Positions 1 to 4,369 of a stretch of DNA of 4,369 nucleotides are shown piece by piece. The stretch is taken from IMG/VR virus record IMGVR_UViG_3300007747_000098. One strand, written 5' to 3'. The notes beneath the pieces were generated by a model. The model worked only from the letters and a program-made list of their open reading frames with translations. It did no database searches and had not been told where the DNA came from. The position numbers and the translations under genes are program-made. Numbering within the stretch: position 1 is the stretch's first letter; the number at the start of each line of letters is the position of its first letter. Origin of the DNA: a virus. Lineage: Duplodnaviria > Heunggongvirae > Uroviricota > Caudoviricetes.

Positions 1-211
1 TATGTTCCCCGCATTCTGCGGCACAGATCAGCTCGGAAAGTTCGTTAAGTGCATCCAGATCATCAGCGTAAAAAGCCACGTCATACAGACTTCGGATTGC
101 TCTGGTCAATGAGTCACGGGCCGCACGTTCAGCATGAGCGCCTGATGCACTTAAGCGAAAATAAAAGCGCTCAAGTGCTTTGTTAATGAGAGTTTTATAT
201 TCTTTGCCCAT
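1..211 (-). CDS. Hypothetical phage early-region protein, N-terminal 70 aa only (C-terminus lies beyond the window start)
   Basis: ATG at 211..209 on the minus strand, open to position 2 with no stop. My translation: MGKEYKTLINKALERFYFRLSASGAHAERAARDSLTRAIRSLYDVAFYADDLDALNELSELICAAECGEH. AAGGG lies 8 nt upstream of the ATG, and the start is 11 nt after the stop of the upstream ORF (223..510), suggesting coupling. Not in the ORF track because it has no stop in the window. Confidence 0.5.
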   Translation of the reverse strand, partial: MGKEYKTLINKALERFYFRLSASGAHAERAARDSLTRAIRSLYDVAFYADDLDALNELSELICAAECGEH

Positions 212-222
212 CGCAACGCCCT

Positions 223-510
223 TTAATCTGCTTTCTGAATTTCAGTTTCTGAATCCATACAGATAATTTCGATATAGGGTTTATCGCCATTAACCTGACG
301 AGCCTTTTCAGCTTCGCTAATGATTTCGCGTACGGTCTGGTACGGAAGTTCCACGATCAGTCGCGTGCCGTTCAGATAAACGTAAGTGGCTTCGGCGGCT
401 CCGTTTTTCCCCGCCGGAGCCACTCCATCAATAGCGGATGCGCGTAATAACAGTTCACCGCGAAAATCAATAAAGCGGATAAATACACCTTGAGTATGGT
501 CTTTAGTCAT
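223..510 (-). CDS. Hypothetical protein, 95 aa
   Basis: Track ORF 223..570 trimmed to the internal ATG at 510 (MTKDHTQGV...), which has an AGGTG SD 5 nt upstream and sits 10 nt after the TAA stop (521-523) of the upstream ORF. The longer 570 start would overlap the upstream ORF by 50 nt. No motif I can recognise. Confidence 0.55.
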   Translation of the reverse strand: MTKDHTQGVFIRFIDFRGELLLRASAIDGVAPAGKNGAAEATYVYLNGTRLIVELPYQTVREIISEAEKARQVNGDKPYIEIICMDSETEIQKAD

Positions 511-520
511 AAAGCACCTG

Positions 521-862
521 TTATAAATCAGCCTGTTTAATAAAACTCTGTCCACGCAGCAGACGATCAACCGTGCGAAGCGCTTCGTATAATGTGAAAT
601 CCTGCCCGAACTGATTGTCGCCGCTGCTCAGAGCAAAAATGCGGTTTCCGGTAAACGGATTGCGCGGGCATTTGTGGACCACGATTCCAGCTTTCTCAAT
701 CAGCCAGGCATGCTCGCCGATTTGTTTTACTGGGTAGCCATCCGGCGTTGCGTGTGTATCACTCAGGCTGTAGCGGATGTTGCTGCGTGATGCACTGGTA
801 GCAAAACGGTTAGCGTGGCGTTCTGCACCATTGCGAAAGCGTGAATTACGTTGCTGTTTCAT
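521..862 (-). CDS. Hypothetical protein, 113 aa, with arginine-rich basic N-terminus
   Basis: Track ORF; ATG at 862..860 with a weak SD. First 30 residues (MKQQRNSRFRNGAERHANRFATSASRSNIRYS) are strongly basic. First gene of an apparent three-gene coupled operon on the minus strand. Function unknown. Confidence 0.5.
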   Translation of the reverse strand: MKQQRNSRFRNGAERHANRFATSASRSNIRYSLSDTHATPDGYPVKQIGEHAWLIEKAGIVVHKCPRNPFTGNRIFALSSGDNQFGQDFTLYEALRTVDRLLRGQSFIKQADL

Positions 863-883
863 GTTAAAGACTCTGTACAGATT

Positions 884-934
884 TAATTATTCCGGCATAG
901 AGGCCGAACTCAAAATATTTGCGATTAAATCGCA
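884..934 (-). promoter_or_regulatory. Predicted sigma70-like promoter plus upstream 15-bp perfect palindrome for the 862..1 operon
   Basis: On the minus strand: -35 TTGAGT (plus 913..908), 16-nt spacer, -10 AATAAT (plus 891..886), about 25 nt upstream of the ATG at 862. Perfect palindrome TGCGATTAAATCGCA at 920-934 sits 6 nt upstream of the -35 (centre near -50). Called by eye only. Confidence 0.3.
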
Positions 935-1114
935 TCGCATTGTTTTCACGTTTTGCGGACTGCTGGTTCATTTTCGTTTGCCTCCGCACATGAGAATTGC
1001 GCCGCTTAAGAGGTAACCGAAGTTAATTGATAGTATTACAATTAACATAAGGTCCAATTTGTCCATGCCACACATAATTACCCTCATTGCAGTAGTTGTG
1101 GGTTGTCAGGTTTC

Positions 1115-1321
1115 TCACCCGATAAACCAGATAACAAACGCTATCAACATCGCCCCAATAGCTGCCGGGAAAAGTCCTTTGGTATAAGCGGCGATATATT
1201 CAATGCTGAGTTCAATAAAGCGTTCTTTATGTCCCGTTAACTTGCGAAACAAATAGATCTCTATTACGCCTATCTCAATAAAAACAAGGGTCAGAATGGC
1301 GCTGATGATATGGCTGGTCAT
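1115..1321 (-). CDS. Small hydrophobic protein, 68 aa, likely two transmembrane segments
   Basis: Track ORF; ATG at 1321 is 6 nt after the cox-like TAG stop (1328-1330), suggesting translational coupling in the early operon. Two hydrophobic stretches (IISAILTLVFIEIGVIEIYLF and LFPAAIGAMLIAFVIWFIG) flank a charged loop (RKLTGHKERFIE). Confidence 0.45.
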   Translation of the reverse strand: MTSHIISAILTLVFIEIGVIEIYLFRKLTGHKERFIELSIEYIAAYTKGLFPAAIGAMLIAFVIWFIG

Positions 1322-1327
1322 TTATGA

Positions 1328-1615
1328 CTAAAGTCCCAGCCACAACAACCATGCGTCGCGGCGTTCTTTCGGTTGCTCAAAAAACGCTTTGCGCATGCCT
1401 TCGTTAAATGCTGGCAGATATACCCAGTTTTCTGATGCACGCGTCTTTACTGAACCTGGTTTCACAAAGTCAATTGTTGGTAGCTTTGCTGCGTCAATCA
1501 TGGTTCTGACTGTGGATTCCTTGCGGCCGATCATCTTGGCGAATAGTTGATATGGCACCGCTTCAAGTGGATATGGTGCTACCTGAATGAACCCCCCAAG
1601 CTCTGATTCGCTCAT
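1328..1615 (-). CDS. cox: Cox-like excisionase / early-operon regulator (P2 Cox family), 95 aa
   Basis: Track ORF; ATG at 1615 with AGGGAG SD 9 nt upstream. It is divergent from the repressor, about 90 aa, and contains motifs I recall from P2 Cox (PYQ-FAK-IG, TVR-MID-KLP, WVYLPA, WL-WLGL). Similarity is from memory, not a search. Confidence 0.75.
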   Translation of the reverse strand: MSESELGGFIQVAPYPLEAVPYQLFAKMIGRKESTVRTMIDAAKLPTIDFVKPGSVKTRASENWVYLPAFNEGMRKAFFEQPKERRDAWLLWLGL

Positions 1616-1728
1616 TGTGGTAATCTCCCTAATTCGTTCGAATGGCTCAAAATGGCTTATATCGGCTTATTTGAGTGTTTTTATATTTGTGCCCGATGTG
1701 GCATGTTGTGATGGAGGATATGCCCGAT
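1616..1728. promoter_or_regulatory. Divergent cox/C intergenic region (candidate lysogeny switch) with phased direct repeats
   Basis: 113 bp between the divergent cox and C starts. Three 7-bp repeats at exact 10-bp phasing (TGGCTCA 1643-1649, TGGCTTA 1653-1659, CGGCTTA 1663-1669). Two copies of a 15-mer with inverted outer arms (TGCCCGATGTGGCAT 1690-1704 and TGCCCGATATGGCAT 1721-1735), 31 bp apart; the second overlaps the C start codon. Confidence 0.5.
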
Positions 1729-2049
1729 ATGGCATCTTTGTCAAGCATGGGTGAAAAATTTCGCCTGATTCGTGAAGCAGAAGGTATGACCCGCCAGGAG
1801 TTTGCGGATTGTGTTGGGCTGCCTTATGGGACGGTAACTAACTATGAGGTGAGGGGGAAGCAAGTAACAGAGGGTGCCTTACTTAAGGTTACGAAACACC
1901 CTAAATTTAAGAAGTATGCTTATTGGTTATCAACAGATGAAACGATGCCGGAGGTCGGGCAAATTTCTCCGGCTCTCTCTCTTGATGGTTCCTGCAATTC
2001 GGAGGGAGATCGCGTTTCAACCGAAACAATCCAAAAATTATCCCGCTGA
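1729..2049 (+). CDS. C: P2 C-type immunity repressor (HTH), about 106 aa
   Basis: Track ORF 1675..2049 starts at a GTG. I prefer the ATG at 1729 (MASLSSMGEKF...) because GGAGGA at 1713-1718 sits 10 nt upstream and the length then matches a ~100-aa C repressor. HTH segment MTRQEFADCVGLPYGTVTNYE; C-terminal GQISPALS resembles P2 C as I recall it. It lies directly upstream of and co-oriented with int. Confidence 0.75.
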   Translation: MASLSSMGEKFRLIREAEGMTRQEFADCVGLPYGTVTNYEVRGKQVTEGALLKVTKHPKFKKYAYWLSTDETMPEVGQISPALSLDGSCNSEGDRVSTETIQKLSR

Positions 2050-2145
2050 GGCCAGAAAACTGGTTAGACCTGCTTTTTGTCTGGTCTGATTATTGCTGGA
2101 AAGAGGCTGGAGAAATTGTAGAGCGGTTCATTGGAGGGCTTCGTA

Positions 2146-3150
2146 ATGTCGATTAAGAAGCTCGAAGATGGTCGTTATTTGCTGGACATCAGGCCGAACG
2201 GACGCAAGGGAAAGCGCGTGCGTAAGGTATTTGACAAAAAATCGGTAGCGGTGGCCACTGAACGCTACATCATGGCGAACGCTGAAAAGCGGGAATATAT
2301 ACAGGGCTACCGTGATCGTCGAACGCTAAATGATTTGCTTGAGTTGTGGTGGATGTATCACGGCCAGCACAGGCGTAAGGCGGAAGAAGACCGAAAACAA
2401 CTGCGCAACATAATCAATGAGCTTGGCGCTGATATGCAGGCTGTGGCTCTTGATAAGCTGAAAATTATCGCGTGGCGTTCTCAAAAGATAGCTGATGGAT
2501 TGAAACCGTCATCTGCTAACAGGTACATGAATCGGTTATCCGGAATGTTTACCGTGCTGAAAAAAATAGGTCTTTGGGATGCAGAACATCCAGTAAGGGG
2601 AATTTCTATTCTTTATGTATCTCCACGAGAAATGGCGTTCCTGTCACAGAAGGAAGTGGCGCTATTGCTCGATACACTGGAGGGCGACTACTGGCGTGTT
2701 GCGCTTTTGTGTTTAAGCACAGGGGCGCGCTGGAGTGAAGCTTGTAAGCTTCGTGGTGAACAGATAGTTCATAACCGTGTAACGTTTCTTGAAACCAAAA
2801 ATGGCCGGAAGAGAACAGTGCCAATTTCGCAGGCAGTTTGTGAGGCGATCAAAACCAGAGAAACAGGCGGCTTGTTTGAGGTGAAGTACCGGGAATTCTG
2901 CCTGGCGCTGAAAAGAGTTAAGCCCGATTTACCAAAAGGCCAGGCTGCACATGTGCTGCGGCATACGTTCGCCAGCCATTTTGTGATGAACGGAGGAAAC
3001 ATTATTGCGCTTCAGAAGATTCTTGGTCACGCAACCATTCAGCAAACAATGGCATATGCGCATTTTGCACCGGATTACCTGCAGGATGCGGTGGCCCTTA
3101 ATCCGCTGAAAGGTGGCGTAAGTGTCCACGCAGTGTCCACGGGGGATTAA
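2146..3150 (+). CDS. int: Tyrosine recombinase / phage integrase, P2 Int-like, 334 aa
   Basis: Track ORF 2131..3150 starts at TTG. ATG at 2146 (MSIKKLEDGRYLLDIRPNGRKGKR...) has GGAGGG 7 nt upstream and matches the P2 Int N-terminus as I recall it (MAIKKLDDGRYEVDIRP). Tyrosine recombinase catalytic signatures are visible: LSTGARWSEA (Arg), HVLRHTFASH (His-x-x-Arg), ILGHATIQQTMAYAHF (Tyr region). Confidence 0.9.
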   Translation: MSIKKLEDGRYLLDIRPNGRKGKRVRKVFDKKSVAVATERYIMANAEKREYIQGYRDRRTLNDLLELWWMYHGQHRRKAEEDRKQLRNIINELGADMQAVALDKLKIIAWRSQKIADGLKPSSANRYMNRLSGMFTVLKKIGLWDAEHPVRGISILYVSPREMAFLSQKEVALLLDTLEGDYWRVALLCLSTGARWSEACKLRGEQIVHNRVTFLETKNGRKRTVPISQAVCEAIKTRETGGLFEVKYREFCLALKRVKPDLPKGQAAHVLRHTFASHFVMNGGNIIALQKILGHATIQQTMAYAHFAPDYLQDAVALNPLKGGVSVHAVSTGD

Positions 3151-3308
3151 TTTTATATAGCCTGAAACGGCTTAAAGGGCGATACTGAATAACAATTTTT
3201 CAGTATTGCCCGTCTAAATGGTTATGTTGTTATCTGTATGATTATTAATGTTTTTTCAGATTAAACAGCAGTTTGCAAATGGGCGTTTGTTGATAAAGGA
3301 GACTTAGA
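3151..3308. other. Candidate prophage attachment-site / phage-host junction region (attL or attR)
   Basis: AT-rich non-coding stretch between the int stop and the host pdxB RBS. Contains an 8-bp inverted repeat with 9-bp spacer (ATACTGAA 3182-3189 / TTCAGTAT 3199-3206), TTTTTCAG repeats and a small dyad AGCC-N6-GGCT (3159-3172). The core cannot be placed without the other prophage end or an empty site. Confidence 0.4.
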
Positions 3309-4369
3309 TTGTCAGAGACTGAAAAAGGGTTAAAAATCCTTGTTGATGAAAATATGCCTTATGCCCGCGACTTATTTAGCCGTTTGGGTGAGGTGACCGC
3401 GGTTCCCGGGCGTCCAATTCCTGTCGCTCAACTGGCAGACGCGGATGCGCTTATGGTGCGTTCGGTCACGAAAGTGAATGAATCTTTGCTGGCAGGAAAA
3501 CCCATTAAATTTGNNNNNNNNNNNNNNNNNNNNNNNNNNNNNNNNNNNNNNNNNNNNNNNNNNNNCAGACGCGGATGCGCTGATGGTGCGTTCGGTCACG
3601 AAAGTGAATGAATCTTTGCTGGCAGGAAAACCCATTAAATTTGTTGGCACTGCCACTGCGGGGACCGACCATGTCGATGAAGCATGGTTGAAGCAGGCGG
3701 GAATTGGTTTTTCCGCTGCACCTGGCTGTAATGCGATTGCGGTGGTGGAATATGTTTTCTCCTCACTACTGATGCTTGCCGAACGCGATGGATTTTCACT
3801 GCACGACCGTACGGTGGGGATCGTGGGCGTTGGTAACGTTGGACGTCGATTGCAGGCGCGACTGGAAGCGTTAGGGATTAAAACATTGCTTTGCGATCCG
3901 CCTCGCGCTGACCGTGGGGATGAGGGTGATTTCCGCTCGCTGGATGAATTAGTTCAGCATGCGGATATTCTGACTTTCCATACGCCACTCTTCAAAGATG
4001 GGCCGTACAAAACGCTGCATCTGGCGGATGAAAAACTGATCCGTAGCCTGAAGCCGGGAGCGATTCTGATTAACGCCTGCCGTGGCGCAGTCGTCGATAA
4101 TACTGCGTTGCTGACCTGCCTGAATGAAGGCCAGAAGTTAAGCGTAGTGCTGGATGTCTGGGAAGGCGAACCGGAACTTAACGTGGAGTTGCTGACAAAA
4201 GTGGATATCGGCACGCCGCATATCGCAGGTTATACCCTGGAAGGTAAAGCACGCGGTACTACGCAAGTGTTTGAAGCCTATAGCAAGTTTATTGGGCATG
4301 AACAGCACGTTGCGCTGGATACATTACTGCCCGCGCCAGAGTTTGGTCGCATTACGCTGCATGGCCCGC
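3309..4369 (+). CDS. pdxB: Erythronate-4-phosphate dehydrogenase PdxB, 3'-partial; reading frame interrupted in this assembly by an N-gap and duplication at 3514-3643
   Basis: Translation before the gap ([62 protein letters not shown]) and after it in frame +1 (…[23 protein letters not shown]…[12 protein letters not shown]…ITLHGP, open to the window end) matches E. coli PdxB as I recall it. Deleting the 130 extra bases restores one continuous frame. Start is either TTG 3309 (AAGGAG SD 3296-3301) or ATG 3354; see findings. Confidence 0.9.
3436..3513 (+). repeat. 78-bp direct duplication of pdxB coding sequence, copy 1 (left gap flank)
   Basis: Copy 1 at 3436-3513 and copy 2 at 3566-3643 are identical over 78 bp except one base (T at 3452 vs G at 3582; CTT vs CTG, both Leu). 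Confidence 0.9.
3514..3565. other. Run of 52 N (scaffold or assembly gap)
   Basis: Literal n characters in the sequence. Together with the 78-bp duplication this adds 130 bases (130 mod 3 = 1), which shifts pdxB from frame 0 to frame 1. Confidence 0.95.
3566..3643 (+). repeat. 78-bp direct duplication of pdxB coding sequence, copy 2 (right gap flank)
   Basis: See copy 1. Consistent with two contig ends that overlap by 78 bp being joined with an N spacer instead of merged. Confidence 0.9.

Follow-up and report, generated by a model that had tools for sequence, protein, structure and literature searches.

The pdxB gene at the end of this viral record appears broken, but the break is an artefact of assembly and does not reflect biology. 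The window, i.e. the whole stretch of 4,369 nucleotides analysed here, is composed of two contigs (contig A, positions 1-3513, and contig B, positions 3566-4369) that are separated by a run of Ns and carry the same 78 nt, with one mismatch, at their facing ends. Very probably this is a scaffolding artefact in which two contigs that overlap by at least 78 nt within pdxB and derive from two different templates were linked through Ns and left unmerged. At this join the organism has one intact copy of pdxB, a vitamin-B6 gene, and no pseudogene. The likeliest background is the presence of two templates among the reads, either by strain mixture or by contamination.

The value of this result lies mainly in quality control. 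In this record pdxB should not be called a pseudogene, and the N run together with one of the 78-nt copies should be taken out; no new biology follows from the pdxB gap. What goes beyond the initial annotation of this DNA is that the join connects two haplotypes, which flags a possible strain mixture.

Geometry of the repeat and the reading frame of pdxB

The following features define the region of the join:

3309-3513, + strand: 5' part of pdxB on contig A; prophage-supplied TTG at 3309 plus 8 codons, then host pdxB from 3333
3436-3513, + strand: left copy of the 78-nt overlap, forming the 3' end of contig A (1-3513); T at 3452 and, a little upstream, T at both 3419 and 3422
3452 (T) versus 3582 (G), + strand: mismatch site, a synonymous Leu CTT/CTG polymorphism segregating in E. 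coli
3514-3565: run of 52 Ns, the scaffold spacer and sole N run in the window
3566-3643, + strand: right copy of the 78-nt overlap, forming the 5' end of contig B (3566-4369); G at 3582
3568-4369, + strand: continuation of pdxB on contig B, in frame from 3568 and running off the window end

The initial annotation had described the same 78 bp on both sides of a 52-N run with one synonymous third-codon difference, and both statements are exact. The single mismatch falls on position 17 of the repeat; when pdxB is read from 3309, base 3452 comes third in a Leu codon, so that CTT and CTG are synonymous. From start to start the copies are 130 nt apart (130 mod 3 = 1), which sets the frame of pdxB left of the gap (opening at 3309) and that right of it (read from 3568) apart by +1, just as the annotation had ascribed a +1 shift of pdxB to the extra 130 bases. 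Both copies abut the N run exactly. This means that the visible length of the copies is set by the gap, and the repeat may exceed the 78 nt that can be seen. Apart from this pair of copies, the longest direct repeat of the window has 24 nt at 75% identity, which places the 78-nt repeat far beyond chance; the chance expectation for a repeat of this length with one mismatch in 4.4 kb is essentially zero.

If positions 3309-3513 are joined with 3644-4369, a PdxB translation without any stop up to the window end is obtained. The merged product of 310 amino acids matches the NCBIfam equivalog for PdxB (NF011966) with E = 1e-203, and its residues 8-310 correspond in colinear order to profile positions 1-303, hence the join entails no net insertion or deletion. 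Its score of 676 lies just below the cut-off of 687, as is expected since the window stops 75 profile positions short of the C-terminus. According to Pfam both 2-hydroxyacid dehydrogenase domains (2-Hacid_dh) are present in the merged PdxB. With this stop-free and NF011966-colinear translation the earlier claim that PdxB is uninterrupted once one copy and the Ns are removed holds true.

Such a pattern is familiar from scaffold gaps with redundant contig ends, i.e. the unmerged or negative-gap overlaps that remain in draft assemblies after the work of paired-end scaffolders and gap closers. There, too, an N run of estimated length is flanked by the same sequence on both sides, and an apparent frameshift in a conserved gene vanishes on removal of one copy and the Ns. 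In contrast with those gaps, the ends found here bear alleles of two E. coli pdxB haplotypes, and this points to a chimeric join between strains rather than to a simple failure to merge.

Two pdxB haplotypes on the two sides of the gap

Contig A carries T, T and T at positions 3419, 3422 and 3452, whereas C, C and G are found there in strain EC14 (L003) and likewise in K-12. An exact 76-mer of the T-T-T type (3400-3475) occurs in 626 of the 5,426 complete E. coli genomes, and among the other matching genomes nearly all of those sampled along the ranked list differ from it at exactly three positions. Over its 804 nt contig B shows 100% identity to many complete genomes, including strains of O26, O103, O111 and O121, and also to EC14, a lysogen with the same prophage end.

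Two lysogen loci, L016 and L020, are 100% identical to window positions 1-3513 (all 3,513 nt) and continue past the join with no insertion. Downstream of it 31-32 of 726 sites distinguish them from contig B, starting with 3657. The other downstream haplotype is also borne by all 12 metagenome contigs of the T-T-T type, which are 94.8-96.0% identical to contig B. The merged haplotype (T-T-T followed by contig B) was found in none of the 5,426 complete genomes; its best match among them reaches 99.7% with 3 mismatches and represents the pure C-C-G type, from which it follows that the T-T-G version is absent as well. The two sides of the gap are thus of different lineages and were not found joined elsewhere among the complete genomes.

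Between the lineage-specific sites lies a block in which the haplotypes do not differ. It comprises 74 nt after removal of the Ns and one copy (3453-3513 plus 3644-3656; on the side of the right contig 3583-3656) and begins within the overlap:

3453-3513, + strand: part of the overlap identical in both haplotypes, 61 nt, opening the non-differing block

Contig A stops exactly 61 nt past its last lineage-specific SNP, inside this shared block.

To judge from these comparisons of sequences, T and G at the mismatch site are both frequent in nature, and each goes with the haplotype on its side of the gap. As each copy bears the allele of its own contig's haplotype, the contigs stand for two different haplotypes of pdxB. 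A random read error probably does not account for the mismatch, since it would need to hit a site known to be polymorphic and, in addition, happen to produce the very allele that fits the rest of that contig. Of the two explanations offered in the initial annotation, a read error is consequently the weaker option and a low-frequency allele comes closer.

A phage-borne 5' fragment of pdxB was considered as source of the T-T-T flank and rejected, as T-T-T also occurs in non-lysogens. These are represented by 9 of the 12 T-T-T metagenome contigs, which match from 3333 onward only, and lysogens with other flanks exist, namely C-C-G (EC14 and L019) and T-C-T. Both observations identify the flank as host DNA and not phage DNA.

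The strongest competing explanation assumes a single pure genome. According to it, the overlap artefact is combined with a consensus or read error at the T/G site, and the true genome is a natural recombinant in which a T,T(,T) flank is followed by the remainder of an O26/O103-type pdxB. We regard this as unlikely. In its favour, the overlap geometry and the intact merged frame fit it equally well. Furthermore, contig ends are error-prone and recombination is frequent in E. coli. It demands, however, exactly the coincidence of site and allele described above, and the required recombinant, whether with T or with G, occurs neither in the 5,426 complete genomes (where the best match has the mentioned 3 mismatches) nor in the 12 T-T-T metagenome contigs.

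Proposed origin of the break

For the preferred reading, a join by Ns of overlapping contigs from two templates, the following course of events can be proposed. The first template would be a lysogen of the T-T-T type that gave rise to contig A, with the int end of the prophage and the first ~180 nt of host pdxB. The second would be a strain having the O26/O103/O111/O121-type pdxB allele with G at the polymorphic site, from which contig B was built. With both haplotypes identical from 3453 until 3657, the assembler could be expected to collapse the shared stretch, and the minor path would end inside it; a k-mer graph built with k close to 61 might behave in this manner where a path runs back into a node common to both. 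Presumably contig A was then linked to contig B by read pairs located in the shared stretch. The T/G conflict, together with a gap estimate that is 130 nt too large (+52 instead of -78), would then have left the ends unmerged; the existence of two templates would also explain the failure to merge the contigs.

Contig B begins 16 nt ahead of the SNP, at a place where the two known haplotypes give no branch point in the graph. Its start may go back to end trimming, low coverage or partial gap filling. At the ends of the window itself no variation was seen immediately outside either end among related loci.

The lineage-discordant alleles are a warning that the source assembly may hold reads from two E. 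coli strains. If so, SNP typing, MLST, phylogeny and gene-content calls made from this assembly are affected.

Single copy of the region in related genomes

Both contig B (3566-4369) and the merged sequence of 907 nt have one match each in 5,426 of 5,426 complete E. coli genomes, and a search for a duplication of this stretch in the same genomes found none. An exact look-up of the window integrase pointed to 256 blocks of a public collection, whereas the X-containing product of 100 amino acids had no exact match. In eight contiguous assemblies with the exact integrase, all of them gap-free long contigs, int is followed by pdxB without a gap and the annotated product has 385 or 370 amino acids. 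The merged sequence aligns ungapped to 8 contiguous loci. An exact 47-nt pattern of the window gave no match in genome_contigs and none in viral_contigs but was found in 12 metagenome contigs, and no Ns occur in these 12. The reading of the initial annotation, that an unmerged contig overlap and no insertion or pseudogene is present, is in this way supported from three sides: by the colinearity of PdxB, by the read-through in L016 and L020 and by the single copy in 5,426 of 5,426 genomes.

These data bear directly on the possibility of a genuine tandem duplication or insertion of ~130 bp, in which the Ns would stand for real unsequenced or masked bases and pdxB would be a frameshifted pseudogene. 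The sequence as written indeed has a period of 130, which would shift the frame of pdxB, and the bases behind the Ns are not visible. Loss of pdxB is moreover tolerated on rich media, pdxB mutants being cited as B6 auxotrophs (PMC6456863). Nevertheless, we consider a genuine duplication very improbable. Copies that arose within one genome should share one haplotype and enclose known sequence; here the lineage-marking SNP differs between the copies, Ns lie between them, and the haplotype changes from one side of the gap to the other. In addition, neither the 5,426 complete genomes nor the 8 contiguous assemblies with the same integrase show any duplication, and both copies break off at the very edge of the N run, in the manner of contig ends.

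Equally improbable is that the scaffold is literally right. The prophage with its flank would then have entered this strain from another lineage by recombination, leaving a real tandem duplication of ~130 bp at the crossover in pdxB. If true, the duplication would inactivate pdxB and render the lysogen a vitamin-B6 auxotroph.

The prophage and its attachment site

Positions 1-3332 of the window represent the int-C-cox end of a P2-like prophage of ~35 kb. Besides a DUF4761 gene it contains the following features, to which the junction with the host is added:

1328-1615, - strand: cox
1729-2049: HTH repressor-like gene
2146-3150, + strand: tyrosine integrase (int) of the P2-like prophage (PF24624, PF00589)
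3333-3354, + strand: prophage/host junction with attR core of ~22 nt, pdxB codons 2-8; shared with the flk-side junction and located outside the repeat

In complete genomes (e.g. L001, NZ_AP022171.1) this prophage is located between flk and pdxB; K-12 has no prophage at this position. At least 80% of window positions 1-3150 are carried by 281 of the 5,426 complete E. coli genomes, and the prophage end is present in about 281-303 of them. The closest named phage is Xuanwuvirus P884B11 with 98.7% identity, and Citrobacter phage PhiSM shows 93.5%.

Homology to K-12 starts at window position 3333, which is the second codon of pdxB, and the flk-side junction of L001 shares the K-12 sequence up to the equivalent of 3354. 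Together these limits define an attachment core of ~22 nt (3333-3354). The published 17-nt core of PhiSM, ATCCTTGTTGATGAAAA, is found inside it at 3336-3352. The prophage replaces the native start and promoter of pdxB and supplies a Shine-Dalgarno sequence (AAGGAG, 3296-3301), the TTG at 3309 and 8 extra codons (MSETEKGL). For PhiSM a phage-encoded TTG start reading into pdxB as well as the 17-nt core were shown experimentally, and its lysogens stay prototrophic (Magaziner et al. 2019, PMC6456863). The insertion of a prophage at the pdxB start is therefore an arrangement that is already published. In sequence identity, in the 17-nt core and in the TTG with AAGGAG reading into pdxB the window resembles the P2-like prophages of the PhiSM and Xuanwuvirus P884B11 type that reside in the 5' end of pdxB. 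This similarity provides context only, as the integration lies upstream of the duplicated segment and offers no explanation for the repeat.

That the duplication of the attachment site (attL/attR) broke the assembly is refuted and of negligible probability: att cores, being true repeats, do interrupt assemblies of short reads, and the window does contain the int end of a P2-like prophage that sits in the 5' end of pdxB, yet the core common to both prophage ends lies 82 nt upstream of the 78-nt repeat, which starts at 3436, and a second match to 3151-3513 occurs in just 4 of the 5,426 genomes.

Some further observations concern the prophage and its junctions. The two copies of the attachment core differ at one base, the flk-side copy of L001 (NZ_AP022171.1, 6434-6455) reading TTGAGGAAAATA versus TTGATGAAAATA for the pdxB-side copy at 3333-3354; this difference makes it likely that strand exchange takes place in the left 14 nt of the core. 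The start of pdxB in lysogens is called in two ways by gene callers, giving either 385 amino acids from the phage TTG (3309) or 370 from an internal ATG (3354), and both calls occur even on identical DNA (L016 versus L020). In L001 the gene is annotated as a PdxB of 385 amino acids. The K-12 product has 378 amino acids, with a GTG start at the native position.

At window position 2447 the integrase has Ala101 (GCT), and Asp101 is found in L001 and EC14; the Ala101 variant is widespread, as its indexing in the 256 blocks of the public collection indicates. A run of T at 3251-3256, upstream of the phage-supplied promoter region of pdxB, deviates by 1 nt in length in the complete genomes EC14 (L003) and L023; either the homopolymer was misread in these two records or its length is truly polymorphic. 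In the prophage of L001, the complete genome that served as reference, the gpA-like replication endonuclease is annotated as frameshifted and the gpD-like region as fragmented (L001 positions 34541-37364 and 10211-11064), and this prophage copy may be defective.
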